In this document: positions 2,542-47,127 of the stretch, piece after piece
Layout of the letters: each line of letters starts with the position of its first letter
Numbering within the stretch: the first letter of the stretch is position 1
NCBI GenBank assembly: GCA_025999215.1
Contig: AP024679.1
Location: 229,645 to 293,644 of the forward strand
Direction of reading: 5' to 3'
DNA length: 64,000 nucleotides
Source: Candidatus Dojkabacteria bacterium
GTDB taxonomy: Bacteria; Patescibacteriota; Dojkabacteria; J137
Program-made: the position numbers and the translations under genes
The notes under the pieces: model-generated
What the model saw: only the letters and a program-made list of their open reading frames with translations
The model's database searches: none
Told to the model about the DNA's origin: nothing

Positions 2542-2802
2542 GTGATATCTATACTCTCAATATCAAAATTCTTTGTTTTTACAGATTTAATTAAATTTGT
2601 AGGCAGAAGACATCGCAAAATCGGTCTTGCTAATGCAATAATCAAAGCACTTGAAGCAAAAGTAGTAGAGAAGAACTACGAGAAAGTTTATATACACACC
2701 GATTTATCAAAGCCAGATGTTTTGAGGTTTTGGAAAAATAGAAGTTACTCCACTTTTGAAACGGAGAGATATGTGGTTCATATGATTAAAGATCTTGCAT
2801 AG
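2542..2802 (+). CDS. GNAT-family acetyltransferase, C-terminal fragment (possibly truncated or frameshifted)
   Basis: RRHRKIGLANAII resembles the GNAT motif A (R/Q-x-x-G-x-G/A). At 86 aa it is too short for a full GNAT domain. Upstream sequence in other frames could hold the N-terminal part. Confidence 0.35.
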   Translation: MISILSISKFFVFTDLIKFVGRRHRKIGLANAIIKALEAKVVEKNYEKVYIHTDLSKPDVLRFWKNRSYSTFETERYVVHMIKDLA

Positions 2803-3820
2803 AACAAAAATTTTCAATTGTTTTTTTAGTTTTTGGCCAAAAATTAGTAATGCCGGCGTTTCTGCCGTAAAGTTTGTATCCAGCATTTACTGGTCTCCCA
2901 CCAATTTTATTGCCTGGTTCAGGTACTATAAAGCGTGTATTTCCTTTTAAATAGCTCACTAGAGCTAACACTATTCCATGTAAAAGCTCGTGAAATGTTA
3001 CAACTTGCCTGGTTGTATGAACGTAGACCTCTTGATATAAAAATTCTTTAACATTTTCAATTGTATATGATATCGCTTGTATGTTTTTTGTGTTTTTTGA
3101 ATTAAAATTGTGATGTTTAAAAGTTTCAAATACTACTTTATCCAAATAACCTCTGTATGGCTCTATTAGATCATATACAAGTGAAGGGTATTCTGTAGGT
3201 GTATGAATGAAGCCATGATATGGGCTTAAATTATGGTAATGAATCCATCTTAATATTATGCTAGATACAAACTTTGATACAGCATCAAGCGTTGCTCCGA
3301 TTAAATTTTCGGAATCTTTTTTTCTTCTAGTAGTATTGTAAAAACCAAGTGTTTTGTAGTATTTTTCCCAGTAATTTTTGGAGTGCCACGCTTCAACATT
3401 TACAATATCTTTAATATCAGTTAATCCTTTAAGGCTATAGGCAGGTTCATTAATTAGCCACTTCATAGAATTAAATTTTGCTTTGATTAGTTTTCTTGCA
3501 ATGTATGCTTTCTTTTTTTTATTTATTCTAAAAGTGATTTGTTTAGTCAAGATATCTTCCTTTCCTGTGGTAACATTTGGTGTTATAACTACAGCTCTAT
3601 GCATGTTTCTTCTGTGAATTACGATTGATACTTTTCTTTTTACACAGTTTTCTAAAAACCCTTGTTCTAGTGGGCATACACTTCCATAAAACATTATAGA
3701 GTGAATGTTATCATAGTTAATTTTTAAATCTCCTCCTTTATAGTGAAAGTGTACAGAATTTTTATTTGTAGCAATTTTATTTGTGTAAGGTAGCCATAAA
3801 TAATCTTTATTTTTTTTCAT
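2786..3820 (-). CDS. cas1: CRISPR-associated endonuclease Cas1 (belongs to the type V-D-like locus)
   Basis: 344 aa with a Cas1-like layout: a basic helix ARKLIKAKF, then NLIGATLDAVSK, then HGFIHT...SLVYDLIEPYR, which resembles the conserved Cas1 GF(L)H...DLMEPFR catalytic region. It sits directly next to the CRISPR array. Confidence 0.85.
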   Translation of the reverse strand: MKKNKDYLWLPYTNKIATNKNSVHFHYKGGDLKINYDNIHSIMFYGSVCPLEQGFLENCVKRKVSIVIHRRNMHRAVVITPNVTTGKEDILTKQITFRINKKKKAYIARKLIKAKFNSMKWLINEPAYSLKGLTDIKDIVNVEAWHSKNYWEKYYKTLGFYNTTRRKKDSENLIGATLDAVSKFVSSIILRWIHYHNLSPYHGFIHTPTEYPSLVYDLIEPYRGYLDKVVFETFKHHNFNSKNTKNIQAISYTIENVKEFLYQEVYVHTTRQVVTFHELLHGIVLALVSYLKGNTRFIVPEPGNKIGGRPVNAGYKLYGRNAGITNFWPKTKKTIENFCSMQDL

Positions 3821-3922
3821 GTTTAGTTTAAAATATCTACAAATAATTCTTTAATTAAGTATAGATTTTGCATATATATTATTGCACTTTAACATTAAAC
3901 ACAAATTAATTTCGGATAAAGT

Positions 3923-4468
3923 CACCGAAATTATTGGTGATGAAGGCAGTAAAAAGTCTTTCAGTTCACCGAAATTATTGGTGATGAAGGCGGCGATAAA
4001 GTAAGGTGGACACCGAAATTATTGGTGATGAAGGCCCTGATACTTCATCTTTCGCACCGAAATTATTGGTGATGAAGGCAAAAGGGTGTTAGATTTGAAC
4101 ACCGAAATTATTGGTGATGAAGGCAAAGTTGTAAAACTCATTCACCGAAATTATTGGTGATGAAGGCGAAAAATTCATACATTAGCACCGAAATTATTGG
4201 TGATGAAGGCAATTCCCGTAATTGTGTTCACCGAAATTATTGGTGATGAAGGCATAAAGCTGTTGCCGTTACACCGAAATTATTGGTGATGAAGGCGTAA
4301 AAGAAGGTATTTTGCACCGAAATTATTGGTGATGAAGGCTTGTCTGTCTCCGAAAGCGCACCGAAATTATTGGTGATGAAGGCACGCCGAGATGTGATTT
4401 CACCGAAATTATTGGTGATGAAGGCAAGGGCTTTCTTCAACATCACCAAAATTAAAAGGGTTTCCGGT
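3923..4468. CRISPR. CRISPR array: 12 x 25-nt repeats CACCGAAATTATTGGTGATGAAGGC plus one degenerate terminal repeat (4444-4468); 12 spacers of 17-20 nt
   Basis: I located every repeat by hand. Repeat starts are 3923, 3967, 4011, 4055, 4100, 4143, 4186, 4229, 4272, 4315, 4359 and 4401. Spacer lengths are 19, 19, 19, 20, 18, 18, 18, 18, 18, 19, 17 and 18 nt. The terminal copy CACCAAAATTAAAAGGGTTTCCGGT is degenerate. The repeat can form a CACC/GGTG mini-hairpin. Confidence 0.92.
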
Positions 4469-4531
4469 ATGTTAGAGATAACATACATTAGCCTTACCCA
4501 TTTCGAAATTATTTGTGTTTTTTGTTAAAAT

Positions 4532-7500
4532 TTGTTAATGAAGAAAAAATATAAAAAACATAAGGGAATAACTGGATATACCCTTCACAATAAAAGACTT
4601 GTATACACTGGTAACCCAAGTATTCGATCAGTTAAATTACCTCTACTTTACAATGGTGATTCTCAGATTATTCAAAATTTCTATGAATCAATGATTCATG
4701 ATTACGAAAAGCTTAATGGCGCTATTAATATTTCAACTTTTATCAAAGATAAAAATATCTATAGCCTTATAGATTTTTGGTTAGATAGCCTGAGACTTGG
4801 AGTAATATTTGGAAGTTCTTTCAAAAGTTTACAAGGTACCATAAATGAAATTTTTGGTACACGCGGTCCTTATGATGAAATACTCAGTAAGATTCCTCAA
4901 GAATTTAGAAATGAAATAAACTTTGATATTTTTGTTAAAGAAATTTTGCAAAAACAAGGAATGAGAAGCACTTCAAGCAAGAACAGTTTTATAAAAAAAT
5001 TAAAAAGATCGTTTGGTATAGATGAAAATTCACCAGATGATCAAATCCCTACACAAAAAAAATTTGTGATGGATAAAATTAATAAAATTGCCGACAGAAT
5101 GTTCCCAGTTGATAACAATTATAAGGTAGTAGATATTCAAACTCAAAGATTAATATGGAAGGAAGAGTTAAATATAGAATTTTCTGATTCAGACAAATCT
5201 GACTATAAACCAACTTTTTACATCATTCCCAGTTTGGTTGATAAAAATACTAAAGATTTTTCTAAAATCTCGCCGATTGAGGTTTTAAATAAACTTAGAA
5301 ATTTTGTAAAAGAAACATGGAATTATTCCGAAAATGATGAAAAAGAAATAACTTCTCAAGTAAAAAGCCTTGCTGGATTGTCCGAAAACTTTAATGCATT
5401 TTCAAATTATTTCAACAATATTTTTAATTTGTTGTTTGATGGGAATATAGAAGCGGTAAAAGATAATTTAAATGCCGTTTTTGAACTTGAAAAAGCTTGG
5501 GGCGATAATATTGCTGATTTAGATGAAAGATTAAATTATTTGGCAAATCAGGCTCAAAAATTAGGAAAACCCAAAATGCAAAATAATTGGGATACATATA
5601 GATCAACTTTTGGAGGTAAACTTCAAAGCTGGTTTTCAAATCTTTTAAACCAAGAAAATGAAATTAGAAACCAGTTAGAAAAACATAAAAAAGAAATAGA
5701 AGTAGCTATAAAGTTTATAGAAAAGCATGATGAAAATTCTCCAATTCTTCAAGATTTGGATCAGTTAAAACGAATTGTTCAAGAAACTATAAACTCAGGA
5801 AATATATTCGAGGCAGAAACAAAAATTAACCTATACAGACAACTCCTTGCGAAGTTTCGCTCGGATTTTAATCAATTTTACCAACGGCACAACAAAGACG
5901 ATGATGACAATAAAGACTTAAAAATTAACAAGGCTTATCCTAATTTATTTAAAAATCTTAGAGTAACTCCAGAATTTTTTGGTGGCTCTAAATACAAAGA
6001 ATACTCAAAGTACGTAGATAAAACTTTTGATATCATCACACAAGGAATTAATATGGTATTGCAAATAGAAGAATCTTTGATTAATAAAATAGATAAAAAA
6101 AATCTCGAAATAGAAAAAGAATATTTTTGTAAACAATTACAATCTTTAAAAAATAAAATAACTACAGAATCTTTATTAGACAAAGATATCAGAATAGAAG
6201 TAGAATCAATTATCAAAAAATATTATGAGTCCAAAGATAAGTTGCCAGATAAATTTGAAGCTTTCTACATCAGTCCTTACTCCAGAGACAAAAGGCTTAA
6301 ATTGATACCGATTTCAGATGATTTGAATTTCGCTTCACAACTACTTGACATACATACCGGGTTAAACAAATTTGATGTTACTAAATTTGGTTTGGATTTT
6401 AAAAAATATTTATCTTACATTGAAATTTTAAAAATTAGATTTGGTTGGATTTTAAAAATGAGCCAAAATCCTACTATAGATGTTTCAGATCTTAAATATG
6501 ATTTATCGAACTTTGAAAATGCTCAAACTTATGTAGATTACTTCGGTAGCAAAATTGAAGATATTGGAAAATTTGTAAATAGCTTCATATTTAGCGAAAT
6601 AAAAGGTGCAATATCAAAAGCAACAAGAAAAGAATTTGTTGAAAGATATGTTATCCAATTTATGGACAGCGAACAAAGGGGCTTAAAATTAACTTATGTG
6701 CCTAAAATAATAAATTCAAAGCCTGTTTCACTACCTAAGACAGTAAGCTTACCTTCAAATGCTGATGAATTATTACAAGATCCCAAAAATGACAAATTGT
6801 TTTTTTATCCTCATAGATGGAAAGTTTTGTTTGACTTTGCATCAATTAAAACAGAATCAACAGAAAATAAACCTAATGCTTTGGTATTTACTTCAAAAAA
6901 CGATTTTAAAAATCCAAAAAAAGTCTATGTTGATGATGAAAATTCCTTTGATATTACTACATCAAAATACCAAATTCACTTTTTAGACAGGCTTCTTTAT
7001 CAAACAAAAAAATGGCGGCAAACTAAAGTGGAGTTTAGCTCGCCTTTTTTAATTTTGGAAGTTACAAGCAAAGTAACTTGGGATTCTCAAACAAAAAAAC
7101 CAATACTCAAACCCAAATCTAACTCAGCAAAACAAGGTGTTCGACTTTTTATAAATTACCCGATCAATTTAAAAACTTTACCAAAAAGCAAAGAAAACAA
7201 ACAAAGTAATATTTATTTGGGAATTGATACTGGAGAATACGGACTAGCTTGGGTAGCTGTTGATTTTTCAGAAAGATTAGCACCTAAAATTTTAGATAAA
7301 GGCTTTATTTATGACGATTCACTAAGAAAAATACAAGATAGAGTAGATGAGATTAAAGATGCTCAAGTTAAAGGAACATTTGGTATTCCTAGTACCAAAC
7401 TTGCCAGAATTAGACAACACACAATTACTACTTTGCGAAATAAAGTTCATGATTTACTATTAAAATACAATGCTAAAGTAATCTACGAGTACTCAATTTC

Positions 7501-8170
7501 CAATTTTGAAACAGGTAGCAATAGAGTTGCTAAAATTTATAGGAGTATTAAGGTCTCAGACGTTTATGCCGAAACAGAGGCTGACAAATTAGTTAAAAAA
7601 CTTGTTTGGGGTAATGCCAATTTGTTACTTGGTAATCATATTTCAGCTTATGCCACTAGCTACACTTGTAGCAAATGTAGAAGATCAATATATTTTGAAA
7701 AAGGTGATAAAAATATTGTAGAAGAAAAACAAGGTTCTTTGATTAAAGTAAAAATAAACGAAAATCTGTATGTTTGGGGATATTCAGCAGATAAAAATAT
7801 TCATAAAGGGAGTATTATAAACAGTAGAGAGCTAATTAATATTGTTAAAAAATATGCTAGACCACCACAAAACTCAGAAGCTTTAAAAAAATTTAATATA
7901 CAAGCCGAACAGTTTTATGAAAATAGAGGAGCCAGCGCAATATTCATTTGCCCTTATGATGACTGTAATCATTTATCGGATGCCGATATTCAGGCTGCGC
8001 TCAACATTGCTATAAAGGGTTATGTATCTGACCAAATAGGGAAGAAAAATACTGAAAAAGATGATGATAAAAAATTAAAGTTTTATTTAGAATATTTAGA
8101 TGAAATTAAAGAAAAACATCCGGTAATCTCATTAGAAGATGTAACAGAAAATCGGGGAGACAGGACTTGA
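4532..8170 (+). CDS. cas12d: Cas12-family type V effector, most consistent with Cas12d (CasY); 1212 aa (the ATG at 4538 is the likely true start)
   Basis: C-terminal third carries a split RuvC nuclease: RuvC-I LGIDTGEYGLAWVAV (D codon 7226-7228), RuvC-II KVIYEYSISNF (E codon 7487-7489), RuvC-III SDADIQAALNIAIKG (7979-8020). A roughly 150-aa insert lies between RuvC-II and RuvC-III and contains a CSKC (7667-7678) ... CPYDDC (7949-7966) zinc finger, which is the Cas12 Nuc/TNB arrangement. There is a large N-terminal region of about 880 aa with no recognisable motif. The neighbours are Cas1 and a short-spacer array, and there is no Cas2 or Cas4. Confidence 0.75.
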   Translation: MLMKKKYKKHKGITGYTLHNKRLVYTGNPSIRSVKLPLLYNGDSQIIQNFYESMIHDYEKLNGAINISTFIKDKNIYSLIDFWLDSLRLGVIFGSSFKSLQGTINEIFGTRGPYDEILSKIPQEFRNEINFDIFVKEILQKQGMRSTSSKNSFIKKLKRSFGIDENSPDDQIPTQKKFVMDKINKIADRMFPVDNNYKVVDIQTQRLIWKEELNIEFSDSDKSDYKPTFYIIPSLVDKNTKDFSKISPIEVLNKLRNFVKETWNYSENDEKEITSQVKSLAGLSENFNAFSNYFNNIFNLLFDGNIEAVKDNLNAVFELEKAWGDNIADLDERLNYLANQAQKLGKPKMQNNWDTYRSTFGGKLQSWFSNLLNQENEIRNQLEKHKKEIEVAIKFIEKHDENSPILQDLDQLKRIVQETINSGNIFEAETKINLYRQLLAKFRSDFNQFYQRHNKDDDDNKDLKINKAYPNLFKNLRVTPEFFGGSKYKEYSKYVDKTFDIITQGINMVLQIEESLINKIDKKNLEIEKEYFCKQLQSLKNKITTESLLDKDIRIEVESIIKKYYESKDKLPDKFEAFYISPYSRDKRLKLIPISDDLNFASQLLDIHTGLNKFDVTKFGLDFKKYLSYIEILKIRFGWILKMSQNPTIDVSDLKYDLSNFENAQTYVDYFGSKIEDIGKFVNSFIFSEIKGAISKATRKEFVERYVIQFMDSEQRGLKLTYVPKIINSKPVSLPKTVSLPSNADELLQDPKNDKLFFYPHRWKVLFDFASIKTESTENKPNALVFTSKNDFKNPKKVYVDDENSFDITTSKYQIHFLDRLLYQTKKWRQTKVEFSSPFLILEVTSKVTWDSQTKKPILKPKSNSAKQGVRLFINYPINLKTLPKSKENKQSNIYLGIDTGEYGLAWVAVDFSERLAPKILDKGFIYDDSLRKIQDRVDEIKDAQVKGTFGIPSTKLARIRQHTITTLRNKVHDLLLKYNAKVIYEYSISNFETGSNRVAKIYRSIKVSDVYAETEADKLVKKLVWGNANLLLGNHISAYATSYTCSKCRRSIYFEKGDKNIVEEKQGSLIKVKINENLYVWGYSADKNIHKGSIINSRELINIVKKYARPPQNSEALKKFNIQAEQFYENRGASAIFICPYDDCNHLSDADIQAALNIAIKGYVSDQIGKKNTEKDDDKKLKFYLEYLDEIKEKHPVISLEDVTENRGDRT

Positions 8171-40353: not shown

Positions 40354-40579
40354 ATTTTTCAAAAAATATTTACTTAGCTAATCATATTTGGTATAAAGCA
40401 CTAGTTAAAAGGTTTACGTAAAGTGCAATTAGATTGTAGCATCAAAACATACATTAGCTATACTATACAAACTTTTACACACTTCTCTCTAAAATTTATA
40501 CTTAAAAAATATCTCAGAAAATTCCTTTGTAAGGTAATAAACTTCAAAGTATTTATTTATTATGAAAAATTAGTAAATT

Positions 40580-41035
40580 TTGAAACCTGAAAATGTATAC
40601 AACGTAACTAAATGGATAGTGTCGATTGCTGGAATAGTTATTTTGGGTTCGTTTGCTTTCTCTAAAGCCTCTAGGAAAGCTATTTGGGAAAGAGCGAAGG
40701 GAGTTTCAGAATTATCTGGAGAAAGAACTAGAAGAATGGAGTGCGCTCATTTAGATCATGATCAAACAAAAAATTATTATGACGACCCAAACAATGGATT
40801 GTTAGTTACAATTTTTGAACACCACGCTCATCATCTGTTTTTTGAAGGTCGAGCTTTTTTGATAGGTTTGAGTGAAGAAGCAAATGAAGTGGCAATACAA
40901 AAAACTTGGGACAGAATTTTTGAATTTGAAAAAAATATTTCCGAAGAAGAAGCTGAAATGAAAGTTCAAGAAGCGATAATAAGATGGGCTAATTATTACA
41001 GAGTCCGTTTTGTTAGGAGTTGCGAAGAAGCATAA
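40580..41035 (+). CDS. small membrane-anchored protein with a His-rich, HNH-like motif
   Basis: ECAHLDHD...N...HHAHH. It lies directly upstream of the type II array. Confidence 0.3.
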   Translation: MKPENVYNVTKWIVSIAGIVILGSFAFSKASRKAIWERAKGVSELSGERTRRMECAHLDHDQTKNYYDDPNNGLLVTIFEHHAHHLFFEGRAFLIGLSEEANEVAIQKTWDRIFEFEKNISEEEAEMKVQEAIIRWANYYRVRFVRSCEEA

Positions 41036-41104
41036 ATATTTGTAGTTGGAGTTTAGTTTTTTGGGATTAAGGATTAAATTTGAAAAACGGTAAAAACGGT
41101 AAGA

Positions 41105-41273
41105 GTCTTTATTCCCTTCTAATTCCCGATAGTGTATAATAGCGATAGCGATGCCATTATACACAAAACAGTCTTTATTCCCTTCTAATTCCCGATAGTG
41201 TATAATAAACGGAAAAACTAGAAAACTTTACGTTCTGTCTTTATTCCCTTCTAATTCCCGATAGTGTATAATA
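41105..41273. CRISPR. CRISPR array: 3 x 37-nt repeats GTCTTTATTCCCTTCTAATTCCCGATAGTGTATAATA, 2 spacers of 29 nt
   Basis: Repeats at 41105-41141, 41171-41207 and 41237-41273. Spacers at 41142-41170 and 41208-41236. Each repeat ends in TGTATAAT. Confidence 0.85.
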
Positions 41274-41276
41274 ACC

Positions 41277-41390
41277 AAAGGGAATAAAGCCTAATGATAA
41301 AGCAAAATAGAGCTTTTGGCTAAGTAAAAAATTAGAACAAAGTTAGTTGATCGGCCGAGTTTTTGGTTTCTTTTTGAGCAGGTTTGCCAA
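41277..41390 (+). ncRNA. candidate tracrRNA (model A): the anti-repeat AAAGGGAATAAAGCC lies 4 nt after the last repeat; extent unknown
   Basis: 41277-41291 is the reverse complement of repeat positions 3-14, with 12 of 13 matching. The TATAAT of the last repeat (41267-41272) would place a transcription start at about 41279-41281. Confidence 0.3.
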
Positions 41391-41658
41391 GCAAAATGTA
41401 CATTTTTTCGTATTGTCTTTCGGTGATGATGAGCGCTCGGATTGCGCCTTTTTGAGGTACATTTTTTTGCAGTCTGTCTATGTGTTTTTTTGTGCCGTCC
41501 AATCCTTTACATATGCGTGAATATACAGAATACTGAAGCATAAAGTAACCGTCATTCAGTAAAAACTTTCGAAATTTTGTATATTTTTTCCGCAATCCCG
41601 GATTATTTACCGGTAAATCAAAAAATACAAGTATGCGCATATATTTTTGATTATTCAT
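41332..41658 (-). CDS. cas2: CRISPR-associated endoribonuclease Cas2
   Basis: MRILVFFDLP...LQYSVYSR matches the Cas2 signature. Confidence 0.85.
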   Translation of the reverse strand: MNNQKYMRILVFFDLPVNNPGLRKKYTKFRKFLLNDGYFMLQYSVYSRICKGLDGTKKHIDRLQKNVPQKGAIRALIITERQYEKMYILLGKPAQKETKNSADQLTLF

Positions 41659-42562
41659 AACAAATACGCTTTATCCTATTAAAACTTGGTAGTTCCAACA
41701 TTTTGGAATTTTTATTTTGAATACACGAAACTAGGCTTTTGACTACATGCTCGGTGGCAGTCATCAATTGCGTTTTTTGATTTTTAATAATTACTTCAAT
41801 TTCAAAAATTTGCATTAAATGAGCTTTAGTTTGTGGCGTTAGATTAGAATCTTCTTGTTTGAGGTTGAGAGTGCGTATCAAAAAATAATCGGCAATTGGT
41901 CTAAAAGGTTCAATTAAGTCATCAGCCAAATTAAAGTTGTTGTATTCGTTGCAGTGTTTGATGCCTATACTAGGAATAAAACCATAAGCGCTACAATGCC
42001 TTGCTAGATTGGATCTGATTAGGGCGTAGGTAAAATTAAGGGCAGAATTTATAAAAATATCTTTATCTCGTGTAAAATTTTTCCCAAAAATAGTAGTGAA
42101 ATATATGCCAGATGCTCTTCCTTCTATGTTTGATTTGTCTGATGATTTTACTTGTTTGCTTAGGGTCAATAGAGTGTTACTCTCTAGAGTAAAATTAAGC
42201 AATTTGAGCACTTTGGCTTGATTGCGAATTTTTTGAGAGACTATCTGTTGCCACAATTGATTTTTGAATGGTTGAGTTAGAGAAACTTGCTCCATTATTC
42301 TTTTGCTTTGTCGTGTATGGTTTTGATAAGGTAAAATTATAGCTTCGGGTAAGTGTTTGCCATTGCATACAATTGCGCATACTTTGTTTTGAGTAAGTGA
42401 AACTATCAGGTTAGAGGTTAGAAGTGATTGGCTATCTATCACTAAAGTGTCTATATCTTCTATTGGAATTTCAAATTTTTCTCCATCTTTTTCAATCACT
42501 ATTTGAGAATTTTTTTGGCTTAGTTTGGTGTTGCTTGAGATTAGAATATTTCTAAATCCCAT
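41651..42562 (-). CDS. cas1: CRISPR-associated Cas1 (type II)
   Basis: 303 aa with Cas1 motifs including YGFIPS...DLIEPFRP; it overlaps cas2. Confidence 0.85.
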   Translation of the reverse strand: MGFRNILISSNTKLSQKNSQIVIEKDGEKFEIPIEDIDTLVIDSQSLLTSNLIVSLTQNKVCAIVCNGKHLPEAIILPYQNHTRQSKRIMEQVSLTQPFKNQLWQQIVSQKIRNQAKVLKLLNFTLESNTLLTLSKQVKSSDKSNIEGRASGIYFTTIFGKNFTRDKDIFINSALNFTYALIRSNLARHCSAYGFIPSIGIKHCNEYNNFNLADDLIEPFRPIADYFLIRTLNLKQEDSNLTPQTKAHLMQIFEIEVIIKNQKTQLMTATEHVVKSLVSCIQNKNSKMLELPSFNRIKRICYE

Positions 42563-42567
42563 TGATT

Positions 42568-45500
42568 TTACTTTAATATAATTGGTTGCCTTGTTTCTTT
42601 ATGTACTTTGTATAGCCTTCCTAGTACATCTACTTGATATTTTTCAATCAAATATAAATTTTTGGATCCTTTCCTAATGTATCCTTTGGAGCCCACATTG
42701 TCGTGCTTTACAAAACTTATTCTTGCATTTGAGGAGTCTACACCAATGAAATATCCACTCAGGTAATAATCATCATCTTTCTTAACTTTTATTTTGATAA
42801 AATCATTTTTGTAAAGGCTAAATTGAAACTCATATGTATCATCAAGTTCTTGCCAGTCGCTCTTTGGAGTATTGATAGTAATGACCTTATTTGGGAGTTC
42901 TCCTGACATAATTTCTGGAAGATAAATTGGCACAAGATAGTATTTTCCATCTTTTTTGAAAACATCCGTTCTCACAATGCGAGAGTTAAGTACATATCCA
43001 TATCCATTTCCTCTTTTTAATTTAACGGTATTGTTTTCAACAGTTTCGCTAATGTACGAAAAAATAGGGCTTTTTTTGTTGGGATCTTTCCAGGTTAATG
43101 GTTCATCTGGTTCTAATTTTCGTTTTTCATTTATAGCTTTGTTTACTGCTTTGTAATATGCTGGATCAGTGTTTTTATAAATTTTTTCAAGAGAATTATT
43201 TAAATCTTTAGATTCTTTTGATAGGTCAATTTGCTTTCTAGTACCTAGTATACTTAAACCTTTCTCGGTTACTCCTCTTTGACTATAAACTGTTTCAAGG
43301 TGCGCTGCGCCTCTAATTTTTCTTTTTGGCTCACGAGATACAATCAAAGGTTTAATTTTGTTTTTAATATCTTTATACAGTTTAAGAAAATCATCAGATT
43401 TTTTATATTTCCAAAACTCTGAGTTTATTTCGCCATTTTGCTCTTTAGAATCCATCTTTTGCGGTTTTTGTGTACCAAAAACTCTTATCAACACATCGTT
43501 TCTAAAGTTAGGCCAAGGATTGGGGAAAGATTTTTTTCGTTTATAAAAATTTTCTTTGTCGTTTTTGTGCCATTCATTCATTTTTTGAATCATCCATGGA
43601 GTGGTAATGCCTACTAGTGTGGCATCAACTGCATGGTGCCTTGCATTTAAATCACGATTTTTTGGTAATCCATACATTTTGAGCAAGTAGTTAGTCATTG
43701 CACCGGTTATCACGTAGACTTTTCGTTTTTTTCCAGGCGTTTCTCTAAATTTTAAATTGTTTTCTACGTAATTTTTGATAGTTCTTGCCGCAAATTGAGT
43801 ATCATTTAAATTTCTATTCAAGAACTCTTCCGGAGGAACATCTTTTGGTAGAGTAGTGTTTAATATTTTATTTTTTTTGGATGTATTAATGTTAAGGCTA
43901 TTTACAAAATTTACAAAGTTTTGCCATTGTTCAGAATTTTCATCTCCTCCAAAATATTCAAAAGGGGTACTGTTTCCTTTTTTTCTATTTACACTGGTTA
44001 ATACCAAAATTTTATTGTTTCTTGAATCATCAAATGATCTGCTGTAAGGTAAAGCGTGATCAATTTCAACGTAGTTATCTTCAAAGAGTTTTTCTGCAGG
44101 AATTTCTTTACCAGACAATAAACATTTGCCTAGCTGTTCTTCTCGTAATTCGTATTTAAGTATATCGTGAGGAGTTACTTCTTTAGTTTTGAAATAGTCA
44201 AAGTTTTCTTCTAAAAATTTCTTTATTTTTTCTTTTCCTTTGGTTATTTCTTCTAAATTTTTTGTTATTTTTCTTTTTTCATCTTCACTTTTTGCCAAAT
44301 CTCTAGCAAGCTCAATATTAACAAAACTTGGGCTTCCATATTTATCTACTATGGCGTTAATAACTTTTCTTGTTTGCGATATTACTTTTTTGACTACAGG
44401 ATTGGTAACTGATGAACTCGTAAATGGCGGGAGTTTTGTAAAATTTCTTTTAAGTTTTAAGGTTTCATTAGGATACTTACTGCGCAAAATTTCTTCTGCA
44501 TGGGTGTAGTTTTCTCCTTCTTTTCGAATTATTTGAGCTAATTCTTTGTAAGCTTTGACTGAAAGATTTGCAAAGCCTGATAAGTTCGGTCCGTAATTTA
44601 CCAAAGTTTCAACTTCTTGAGGACTTAGTTGTGAAATTCCCTCAAAATAATCTTTCAAATCTTCATCAGTTTTTCTAACGGTTAAGCCATACACAATTTG
44701 TTCATAAAGATTAAAATCATTTGTGATTTTTTCCCAAAGATCACCATTTCTGTCTTTAATAGCTTTTCGAAGTTTGTGATATCCACTTAAAGGTTTTAAA
44801 CCTTTGATCTTTTCTTTTTCTTTGCTTGCATCAACATCTCTAAAAGAGTACTCTTCGGGAATTTCTGCCCACTTTCTAATGTGATAATAACTTATGTTTG
44901 AAGAGTGGGAAAATATATGATCATAAATCTTATCAAGTTCGCTTTGATTCAAAGGTCTTAACTCTCCTGTTTTTGTGTTAAAAACTTTAATGTTATTTTG
45001 CAGAAAGTTAAAAAATCTAAATATTTCAAAATTTATTGAGTGTACAGGTGCTCTGCTTTCATTTGGGAAAATACCACACTTTCCAACCATTTTTTCAATG
45101 TCATCTGTTTGTGCAAAAGGCCTTTGATAATTAAAAATCTCCAAAATTTTATTTTCAAAATCTTCAGTGATCTTTTTGTTTCCAAACTTTTTTTGTTTTT
45201 TTTAAATTTCTTTGAGTTCATCTTCAAGCATTTTTCGAGTTACCAGTCTTTTGTAGTTTCCTCTTCTATTTCTCTTTTGAAACTTAAACTCTTCATCTTT
45301 ATAAAACATTTCTCCAACTGTTCTGTAATTTTTTAAAAGTTCTTGGTTTTTTGATATATTCTCTGCTAGTTTTCCGCCTTCTTCTCCTTCTAATGCAATA
45401 TTTTTACGGTTTGATTTAAACCCTCTCCTTTTGACTATGTGTATCAAAACTCGAGCTAATTCTTCATCAGTTAAGCGCTCATCTAACGCCTTGCAACGAA

Positions 45501-45813
45501 GGAACCATGGATCATGTTTTTTGATATCAAAATTGTCAAATTCCGTGGGGAAACCAAAGCTATCTAGAGCTTTTTTAAGTTTTTTTATTCTGTATTTTCT
45601 TCTTCTTACTACTCGCCTTGATGATCGGGCTTCTCTTCTCACTTGATTTGGGTGTTTATCTCCTGCATTTACTCCAGCTTCAAAAACTCTTACTCCAGTA
45701 TCAATCAACCTCACTGGACGATAATATTCATTTTCTTTCTGTATTTCTATTACAGCCCAACCAATTGTCGCAGACCCTATATCAAGGCCAAGCGTATACT
45801 GTAAATCTTTCAT
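42568..45813 (-). CDS. cas9: Cas9 (type II-C-like, about 1078 aa), reading frame interrupted by one in-frame TAA at 45202-45204
   Basis: N-terminal fragment (45202..45813) has RuvC-I LGLDIGSATIGWAVIE and the Arg-rich bridge helix. C-terminal fragment (42568..45144) has the HNH motif (DHALPYSRSFDDSRNNKILV), RuvC-II (KVYVITGAMTNYL) and RuvC-III (HHAVDATLVG). Both fragments are in the same frame. Confidence 0.85.
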
Positions 45814-45909
45814 TTTTTTTATTTTTTAATTCTCTACAAAAGTAGAGATGAGTTTTCTAAAGGATCTCAAACCTTTCGGCTTATTGCCTTATCTTTATAA
45901 CCTTAATAA

Positions 45910-45930
45910 CTTTATTCCCGATAGTGTATA
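45910..45930 (+). repeat. solitary degenerate type II repeat, missing the internal 11 nt TTCTAATTCCC
   Basis: CTTTATTCCC-GATAGTGTATA equals repeat positions 3-12 joined to 24-34. It lies 97 bp upstream of the cas9 start. Confidence 0.6.
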
Positions 45931-45978
45931 TTCAAGCTATAAAGATTCAGTTTAATTCTACAAAACTTATGAAAATAT

Positions 45979-46075
45979 TTCAAGGAAAATATTTCTAAGA
46001 TCTTCCTAAAATTTCATCCAAGCTGTTGGGATCGGGTTCAGAAAATTTTAAATGCAAAGTATTGTTTACTCTATA
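45979..46075 (+). repeat. direct repeat copy A (duplicate of the 3' end of ORF 47229..48725), downstream of pyrD
   Basis: About 75 nt are near-identical to 47213-47291 (AAATATTTCTAAGATCTTCC[T/C]AAAATTTCATCCAAGCTGTTGGGATC[G/A]GGTTCAGAAAATTT), with weaker similarity for another 20 nt or so. Confidence 0.75.
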
Positions 46076-46086
46076 TTTCCTATATT

Positions 46087-47127
46087 TCAAGAATTAAATT
46101 TTTTTAGCAATAATTTATTTATTTTCTTCACCAAAGCTGGCCCTTCGTAAACAAATCCTGTATAAATTTGTACTAAATCGGCCCCTGCATTTATTTTTTC
46201 TAAAGCATCTTGTGGAGATGTTATACCTCCCACTCCAATTACTGGAAATGCGTTTTTTGATTTTCGCTTCAAGTATTTTATTACTTCTGTTGAGTTTTTA
46301 AATATAGGTTTACCACTCAATCCACCTCCACCAATTTTATTAACGACTTTGTGGTGTGTGATCAATCTATACCGGTTTGTGGTTGTATTGGTGGCAATTA
46401 CACCATCAATTTTTGTTTCTTTGACAATCTCAATAATATCGTCTAACTGTTGATGATTTAAATCTAGTGAAATTTTCAATAATATAGGTTTTCGTTTAGA
46501 TTTTTGGTTGTTTTCTTGTTGTAGCCGATTTAACAGATCTGTGAGAGGTTTTTTATTTTGCAATTTGCGGAGGTTTGGAGTATTGGGTGAACTTACATTT
46601 ACCACAAAGTAATCAACATACATGAAAAGCTCGTTAAAGCATTTCAAATAATCTTCGGCAGCTTTTTCGTTTGGAGTAAATTTATTTTTTCCAATATTTC
46701 CGCCTATTACAATGTCTGTTTTTCTCTTTTTTAAATTCTCCACAACTTTTAATACTCCATCGTTATTGAAACCCATTCGATTAATCAGCGCTTTGTCTTT
46801 TGGTAAAAAGAAAAGTCGTGGCTTAGGATTTCCTGGTTGAGGTTTTGGTGTAACAGTACCGATTTCTATAAAACCGAATCCAAAGTTTGAAAATTCATTG
46901 TAAAAGCAAGCATTTTTATCAAATCCAGCTGCCAAACCTATTGGATTTTTAAAATGTAATCCGAAGAGTTGTCTCTCAAGGGCAGGAGAATTAACTGTAT
47001 AGATTTGTTGTGTTACTTTTTTAAATAATGGGATTTTGAATAAAGTTTTTATTATAACTACAAAAACATAAATTGCCTTTTCAGGTGGTAGTAATGATAA
47101 ACTTAATCTTATGATTATTTTATGCAT
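46087..47127 (-). CDS. pyrD: dihydroorotate dehydrogenase (quinone-type, membrane-anchored)
   Basis: N-terminal hydrophobic anchor, [10 protein letters not shown], and NIGKNKFTP...GGLSG motifs. Confidence 0.85.

Follow-up and report, generated by a model that had tools for sequence, protein, structure and literature searches.

The short repeat-like sequence found immediately upstream of cas9 in the genome of an uncultured Candidatus Dojkabacteria bacterium (CPR; a metagenome-assembled genome, or MAG) is, with high probability, the 5′ half of a type II-C tracrRNA anti-repeat, the corresponding gene lying on the minus strand between pyrD and cas9. This tracrRNA has the ordinary layout of the GeoCas9 and CcCas9 systems, here in a CPR genome, and its mechanism holds nothing new. 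CRISPR-Cas9 systems are rare among CPR bacteria. Throughout, “the window” means the whole stretch of DNA that was analysed, which is 64,000 nt long with a G+C content of 31.9%, and all positions and strands quoted for it are those of that stretch.

The type II-C locus

The gene pyrD (dihydroorotate dehydrogenase) lies 5′ of cas9 on the same strand, the gap between the two being 273 nt. The cas9 gene itself (type II-C; 42568–45813, minus strand) spans 1081 codons starting from an ATG at 45813, and on the same strand are cas1 (41651–42562; Pfam Cas_Cas1, 1.5e-30) and cas2 (41332–41658; Pfam CRISPR_Cas2, 1.9e-16). Downstream of cas2 there is a CRISPR array (41105–41272) made up of three identical 36-nt repeats (41105–41140, 41171–41206 and 41237–41272) and two spacers of 30 nt; on the plus strand, which is the probable crRNA sense, the repeat reads GTCTTTATTCCCTTCTAATTCCCGATAGTGTATAAT. 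When the two spacers were searched against a phage collection, both gave chance-level matches alone (E about 0.6). A plus-strand open reading frame of 151 aa (40580–41035) adjoins the array on the flank away from cas2; it contains the His-rich motifs ECAHLDHD and HHAHH and had zero matches in Pfam.

The nearest relatives of this Cas9 are just 36–38% identical to it, while the larger of the two cas9 reading frames is 100% identical to KatS3mg085_268. The gene is interrupted by an in-frame TAA (45202–45204, codon 204) situated within an A-rich stretch, GAAATTTAAAAAAAAC; the remaining 1081-codon frame is open, so that cas9 as a whole has one stop and zero frameshifts. This TAA could be a recent nonsense mutation or an error of the MAG consensus or assembly. 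Its presence makes present-day activity of the system doubtful, and the system may be inactive.

A separate type V-D CRISPR system is found elsewhere in the window (2786–8170). It comprises a cas1 gene (2786–3820, minus strand), an array (3923–4427) of 12 repeats of 25 nt (CACCGAAATTATTGGTGATGAAGGC) with spacers of 18–20 nt, and a gene for Cas12d/CasY (4532–8170, plus strand; NCBIfam NF033951, 1132 bits), and appears intact.

The repeat-like element

Read on the plus strand, positions 45910–45930 have the sequence CTTTATTCCCGATAGTGTATA, which corresponds to repeat positions 3–12 joined directly to positions 24–34, the 11 internal bases 13–23 being absent; the element begins 97 nt from the cas9 ATG. 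All this was described in the earlier note, together with the double occurrence of ATTCCC in the repeat, and as a description of the sequence it is confirmed. The match is far beyond what chance would produce: when 2 mismatches are allowed, the 17-mer ATTCCCGATAGTGTATA has four matches in the 64-kb window (the three repeats and the element), as against an expected 0.01.

On the minus strand the likeness to the repeat extends past 45910 as far as 45891 (...TTATTAAGGTTATAAAGAT), and alignment to the covariance model R1 (see below) together with cofolding defines a tracrRNA anti-repeat of 40 nt, TATACACTATCGGGAATAAAGTTATTAAGGTTATAAAGAT (45891–45930, minus strand), within which the 21-mer at 45910–45930 is included. 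The difference between this true anti-repeat and the repeat is a small insertion, of 5–6 nt. The inserted AAAGU (45913–45909) produces the sequence GGGAATAAAG, a mimic of the 5′ end of the repeat, and it is because of this that the 21-mer resembled a repeat with an 11-nt deletion. The “deletion” is thus an alignment by-product: it fits the 21-mer, but the alignment that it implies is not a homologous one. The proposals that it arose by slippage and that it provides the tracrRNA with a built-in 11-nt bulge are consequently not supported, as the full 40-nt anti-repeat, with its 5–6-nt insertion, forms the lower stem that is usual in this family.

Orientation of the array and the crRNA strand

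For comparison, 80 loci encoding relatives of this Cas9 (30–37% identity) were each oriented so as to place cas9 on the plus strand. In all 67 of these that carry an array, Neisseria and Geobacillus included, the repeat has the same orientation relative to cas9 as it does in the window; in all 67, too, the order is cas9-cas1-cas2-array and the repeat as read on the cas9 strand has the form ATTATA/ATTGTA...GGGAACTATAAC. Published RNA-seq data for such arrays show that their transcription runs counter to that of the cas genes; the species concerned are N. meningitidis and C. jejuni (PMC3737331), G. stearothermophilus (PMC5681539) and C. cellulolyticum (PMC7038990), and in the last of these the repeat terminates in a sequence similar to an extended −10 box. 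Given this unanimity of repeat orientation, and given the RNA-seq results for relatives, the crRNAs should be read from the plus strand, antisense to cas9; judged by homology, then, the crRNA sense is the plus strand of the window.

In this orientation the repeat begins with GTC and each copy terminates in TATAAT. The start points of the crRNAs would probably be set by these TATAAT sequences, although as a −10 box the end of the window repeat lacks the extended TGn present in relatives, which counts against it. If the crRNAs do come from the plus strand, the element upstream of cas9 can pair with them solely as a minus-strand RNA, that is to say one co-directional with cas9.

Homology to the tracrRNAs of related loci

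The location of the tracrRNA was assessed in 25 relatives by masking the arrays and taking the site that most resembled the repeat. In 19 (L001–L007, L011, L013, L016, L018, L026, L028, L041, L049, L064–L066 and L080) this site starts 130–260 nt 5′ of the estimated beginning of cas9 and has the strand of that gene and the anti-repeat sense, a layout seen in Firmicutes, Patescibacteria and others, and it is this arrangement that is found in the window, where the element is likewise on the cas9 strand (TATACACTATCGGGAATAAAG...). In the Neisseria-type loci (L010, L017 and L029) the element is also upstream of cas9 but is inverted, i.e. divergent, while in L076 it lies beyond the array. The tracrRNAs of GeoCas9 and CcCas9 were found experimentally, in the former case upstream of cas9 (PMC5681539) and in the latter upstream of the cas genes (PMC7038990).

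The plan of the RNA in these relatives runs, from its 5′ side, through a promoter, an anti-repeat ending in ...GGTTACTATAA(T/C), the segment (A/T)AAGG-loop-CCG and a G+C-rich hairpin set within the outer stem GNAAAG...CTTT, to a final U-tract. In L036, L015, L021, L069 and L009 the tracrRNA terminator abuts the ribosome-binding site of cas9. A metagenome scan using a degenerate repeat pattern retrieved only arrays of the L001 type (L081–L083), and no closer relative. Two of these, L082 (921–1018) and L083 (4460–4558), are short metagenome contigs with L001-type repeats; downstream of the repeats, in crRNA orientation, both carry one and the same non-cas flank (CCAAACCCTTTACTACTCAATG...). Their arrays may be detached from cas genes, or may belong to some other locus layout.

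A covariance model, R1, was made for the tracrRNA core of 13 relatives (anti-repeat, nexus stem and GNAAAG), the window being left out. No consensus structure emerged from RNAalifold when whole tracrRNAs were aligned with MAFFT, the hairpins being misaligned, and R1 was instead derived from a shorter core alignment in which the nexus stem was specified by hand. When the whole window was searched on both strands with filters off, the top match was at 45930–45869 on the minus strand, with a score of 35 bits (E = 4.8e-7), and covered the full length of the model, the anti-repeat containing 6 inserted nt; after it came the CRISPR repeats, at no more than 12.6 bits. The same whole-window search gave zero matches at the site of the element on the plus strand, and zero near 41277. 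An Rfam scan of 40500–46500 (E ≤ 10) yielded chance-level matches and no tracrRNA family, with no family of any kind at 45800–46100.

Within the R1 match, and adjoining the 3′ end of the anti-repeat, is the nexus (45878–45890, minus strand), a predicted hairpin consisting of AA and the stem-loop GGC-AATAA-GCC, with a G following at 45877. The nexus 14-mer, AAGGCAATAAGCCG, is identical in the Clostridium locus L016; in the relatives the nexus stem is GGC/GCC, GAC/GUC or GGU/ACC. The suggestion made in the earlier note that the element is a tracrRNA anti-repeat, as opposed to a decayed orphan repeat, is borne out by the 35-bit match and by the nexus, the latter of which excludes a pure orphan repeat.

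Pairing of the anti-repeat with the repeat

Cofolding of the plus-strand repeat with the minus-strand RNA 45935–45886 gave −36.2 kcal/mol, with 31 of the 36 repeat bases paired (for the 21-mer alone the value is −27.2 kcal/mol). Starting from a G1–U pair, the duplex has 8 bp, a 2 × 2 loop at repeat positions 9–10, 4 + 2 bp, a 5-nt bulge on the tracrRNA side and finally 17 perfect bp. The 8-bp lower stem and the 2 × 2 loop are common to 18 of 20 relatives, for which the energies lie between −37.7 and −50.1 kcal/mol; the window duplex is the weakest of the compared set, which counts against it.

Cofolding does yield the duplex proposed previously (17 bp, a bulge and 4 bp), at −27.9 kcal/mol, and to that extent the proposal stands, but this duplex is not the homologous pairing, which is that of the full anti-repeat described above. 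Duplex energy is in any case uninformative as to strand, because the mirror model (minus-strand crRNA with plus-strand RNA) gives −36.3 kcal/mol, as against −36.2; it is the homology and the tail that decide.

Promoter, tail and predicted course of events

A sigma-70-like promoter, TTGAAA-17-TAGAAT, is predicted on the minus strand at 45955–45983, with a start at about 45948. It agrees with the consensus at 10 of 12 positions, making it the joint best in 40900–46200, a figure that reflects a match to the consensus only, CPR promoters being uncharacterised; the relatives have boxes of the TTGACA/TATAAT type at the equivalent position.

The minus-strand transcript 45948–45814 has a predicted fold of −30.4 kcal/mol (z = −4.18), and its tail has three predicted hairpins (the GGC/GCC nexus, AAAGG/CCUUU and UCUCUAC/GUAGAGA) that together give −17.1 kcal/mol (z = −3.07). 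The second of these hairpins (45859–45876, minus strand; AAAGG-TTTGAGAT-CCTTT), identified from the fold prediction and from the tails of the relatives, is the counterpart of their outer AAAG...CTTT stem without the inner G+C-rich hairpin. The third (45831–45848, minus strand; TCTCTAC-TTTT-GTAGAGA) is followed by an A-rich stretch and then by the cas9 ATG. In the part of the tail that lies between the tracrRNA hairpins and the ATG (45814–45858) there is no U-tract, and the G+C-rich hairpin of the relatives (CCCC/GGGG, after which comes a U-rich sequence) is absent; both absences count against the present interpretation. For a tracrRNA, then, the tail in the window is unusually short and A+U-rich. 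The hairpin at 45831–45848 is terminator-like solely when read on the plus strand, where TGAGTTTTCT follows it.

On the basis of the sequence match, the homology to minus-strand tracrRNAs of relatives, the pairing geometry and the locus layout, some predictions can be made as to transcription start, read-through, processing and activity. Transcription would proceed from the promoter at 45983–45955, starting near 45948, and would give an RNA composed of the 40-nt anti-repeat (45930–45891), the nexus stem-loop AAGGCAATAAGCC and two more hairpins. It would probably continue into cas9, read-through being likely because a U-tract terminator is absent. The repeat part of the crRNA would pair with the anti-repeat so as to form the lower stem, the 2 × 2 loop, an irregular middle section and the 17-bp upper stem; RNase III would then cleave the upper stem, with the lower stem, nexus and hairpins held by Cas9.

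Alternative explanations

The reading that has to be taken most seriously as a rival, although on balance it seems unlikely, is that the element is a non-functional relic, i.e. that the tracrRNA gene is decaying along with a pseudogenised cas9 and is neither expressed nor used. The in-frame TAA of cas9, the possession of just three repeats by the array, a degenerate tail without a terminator hairpin, the 5–6-nt insertion in the anti-repeat and the presence elsewhere in the window of an intact-looking type V-D (Cas12d) system would all be in keeping with such decay. However, the 17-bp upper stem is perfect, the lower stem, 2 × 2 loop and nexus are intact, and the three repeats are mutually identical, while a single stop in cas9 unaccompanied by frameshifts may represent either a very recent mutation or an error of MAG assembly.

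Further possibilities arise from the sequence immediately 5′ of the anti-repeat. Here there is a leader pseudo-repeat, ATCTTTATAGCTT (45934–45946, minus strand), that resembles repeat positions 1–14 and can form 13 bp with that half of the anti-repeat which makes the lower stem (45904–45891). The energy of this pairing is −13.9 kcal/mol, compared with −5.8 ± 1.75 kcal/mol for shuffled sequences (mononucleotide shuffles only), none of 2000 being as good, and the pairing forms part of the minimum free energy (MFE) fold of the minus-strand transcript. In S. pyogenes (type II-A) the tracr-L form similarly has a repeat-like segment 5′ of the anti-repeat and folds back upon itself (10.1101/2023.03.03.530964, citing Workman et al. 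2021); tracr-L is known from type II-A alone.

It is conceivable, but improbable, that the window tracrRNA doubles in the same way as a tracr-L-like natural single guide, with the fold-back hairpin regulating cas9 or occupying guide-less Cas9. Apart from the pairing itself, the location of the tracrRNA within the cas9 5′ leader, without a terminator, would suit such a role. Set against this, transcription from the predicted start would place no more than about 2 nt in front of the pseudo-repeat and hence no guide, and the fold-back hairpin does not have the 2 × 2 loop. The 10–12-mers upstream of the pseudo-repeat have no second copy in the window, so that no spacer-like segment with a promoter target of the tracr-L type was found there. 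Nor is the feature conserved: in 13 scored relatives the pairing never reaches the 0/2000 seen in the window, the lowest shuffle fractions being 0.02–0.08 (L011, L004, L007, L016 and L041) and the others 0.13–0.82.

A related idea, to which we would give slightly less credence still, is that the cas9 mRNA has the tracrRNA as its 5′ leader, and that the primary transcript would fold by way of the pseudo-repeat into a guide-less hairpin resembling an sgRNA; needing no crRNA, this hairpin could be loaded into Cas9 or could serve as a substrate for RNase III. Were this so, the fate of the cas9 mRNA, or the occupancy of Cas9, would be coupled to the supply of crRNA, and tracr-L autoregulation would have a counterpart in type II-C and in the CPR, though one without a promoter target.

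Two remaining readings are both very improbable. In the first, put forward in the earlier note, the minus strand is the source of the crRNAs, which are transcribed along with the cas operon, and the element is a plus-strand, S. pyogenes-like tracrRNA, divergent from cas9, that pairs through 17 bp, an 11-nt bulge and 4 bp. On paper the pairing can be drawn (the 21-mer gives −27.9 kcal/mol, its extended form −36.3 kcal/mol), and the Neisseria-type II-C loci L010, L017 and L029 do carry a divergent tracrRNA upstream of cas9. Even in those Neisseria loci, however, crRNA and cas9 are antisense to each other, and the element found upstream has the reverse orientation to that of the window. Plus-strand crRNAs had themselves been named as the observation that would refute the model, and it is to the plus strand that the 67/67 repeat orientations and the published RNA-seq of relatives point. 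The plus strand, moreover, is without a tracrRNA tail: R1 finds no match on it at this site, and the fold of a plus-strand transcript 45905–46040 is unremarkable (z = −0.63). There is no promoter-like site on the plus strand upstream of the element, and the sole such site nearby has its −10 box within the element, so that a transcript starting from it would be without the anti-repeat.

The second concerns an inverted partial repeat, AAGGGAATAAAG, at 41278–41289 on the plus strand. This is the exact reverse complement of repeat positions 3–14 and is located in the interval that separates the array from the cas2 stop codon, 5 nt past the last repeat; a 12-bp hairpin with the last repeat is possible. 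It might be argued that this is the real anti-repeat and that the element upstream of cas9 is a relic, since its complementarity to the repeat is perfect over 12–13 bp, it is on the correct strand for pairing with a plus-strand crRNA, and L076 provides a case of an anti-repeat kept beside the array and not upstream of cas9. Cofolding with the repeat, however, gives only −16.0 kcal/mol; the G1/U2 end of the lower stem is missed and there is no upper stem for RNase III; and there is no nexus or tail (zero R1 match; fold z = −0.28). The sequence has no counterpart in 25 related loci, and it falls within about 10 nt of the start point that would be set by the −10 box of the last repeat. It had been supposed that this candidate, referred to as the 41277 model, and the one upstream of cas9 are mutually exclusive with respect to the crRNA strand, such that one RNA-seq experiment would decide between them; in fact both would pair with a plus-strand crRNA, and since the two candidates need the same crRNA strand the experiment would not discriminate between them as stated.

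Comparison with known systems

The type II-C tracrRNA proposed here, read from the minus strand upstream of cas9, may be set beside several systems. In the GeoCas9 system of Geobacillus stearothermophilus (type II-C; Harrington et al. 2017, PMC5681539; the Geobacillus locus used in our comparison is L004, from Geobacillus jurassicus) the tracrRNA is likewise upstream of cas9 and the array runs opposite to the cas genes. The repeats belong to the same 36-nt family, GTCATAGTTCCCC...GGTATAAT in GeoCas9 as against GTCTTTATTCCC...GTGTATAAT in the window; the anti-repeat ends similarly, in ...GGTTAC/TATnAT followed by AAGG, and the 8-bp lower stem and 2 × 2 loop are shared. The window differs in that its Cas9 is only about 36% identical, its anti-repeat has the 5–6-nt insertion, its host belongs to the CPR and its cas9 has a stop codon, while its tail is far shorter, A+U-rich, and without the G+C-rich hairpins and terminator.

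The type II-C systems of Clostridia, exemplified by CcCas9 (Fedorova et al. 2020, PMC7038990), have in common with the window an upstream tracrRNA, antisense crRNAs and a repeat end resembling a −10 box; here the comparison was made with Clostridium loci from the related-locus set (L016, L021 and L036) and not with the CcCas9 locus itself. In these loci the nexus AAGGCAATAAGCCG (in L016) is followed, as in the window, by the outer AAAG...CTTT stem, but the inner CCCC...GGGG hairpin and the U-tract have no equivalent in the window, where an extra A+U hairpin comes after the stem.

The closest repeat, GTTTTTATTCCCTGTGATTTCCCGATATGCTATAAT, is that of the Patescibacteria loci L001 and L081 (JAGPKW010000056.1; Ga0208197_1002278), where the anti-repeat, ...CAGGTTATAAAAATAAGG, shares its strand with cas9, precedes the start of that gene by about 90 nt and is itself preceded by a −10 box, TAGAAT. 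Unlike that of the window, however, this anti-repeat has no insertion, the nexus stem is longer, the terminator is canonical and there is no leader pseudo-repeat; the Cas9 is 37% identical.

With the type II-A tracrRNA of S. pyogenes the window shares the presence, upstream of cas9, of a sequence that resembles the repeat and pairs with it in the crRNA; in both, a G1–U pair closes the lower stem, with AAGG following. In S. pyogenes, though, tracrRNA and cas9 are divergent and the array runs in the direction of the cas operon, both of which are reversed in the window, and the Cas9 subtype and the repeat family are different.

Implications

One consequence of these results is the removal of a false lead, namely an S. 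pyogenes-like divergent tracrRNA with an 11-nt bulge. The short, A+U-rich tail could attract those searching for compact guides, but the cas9 gene is interrupted. For the design of guides for this Dojkabacteria Cas9, the crRNA would be taken from the plus strand, as a spacer followed by GUCUUUAUUCCC..., and the tracrRNA from the minus strand, from 45930 to about 45831; for a Cas9 cleavage assay, the plus-sense crRNA would consist of a spacer of about 22 nt followed by GUCUUUAUUCCCUUCUAAUUCCCG.
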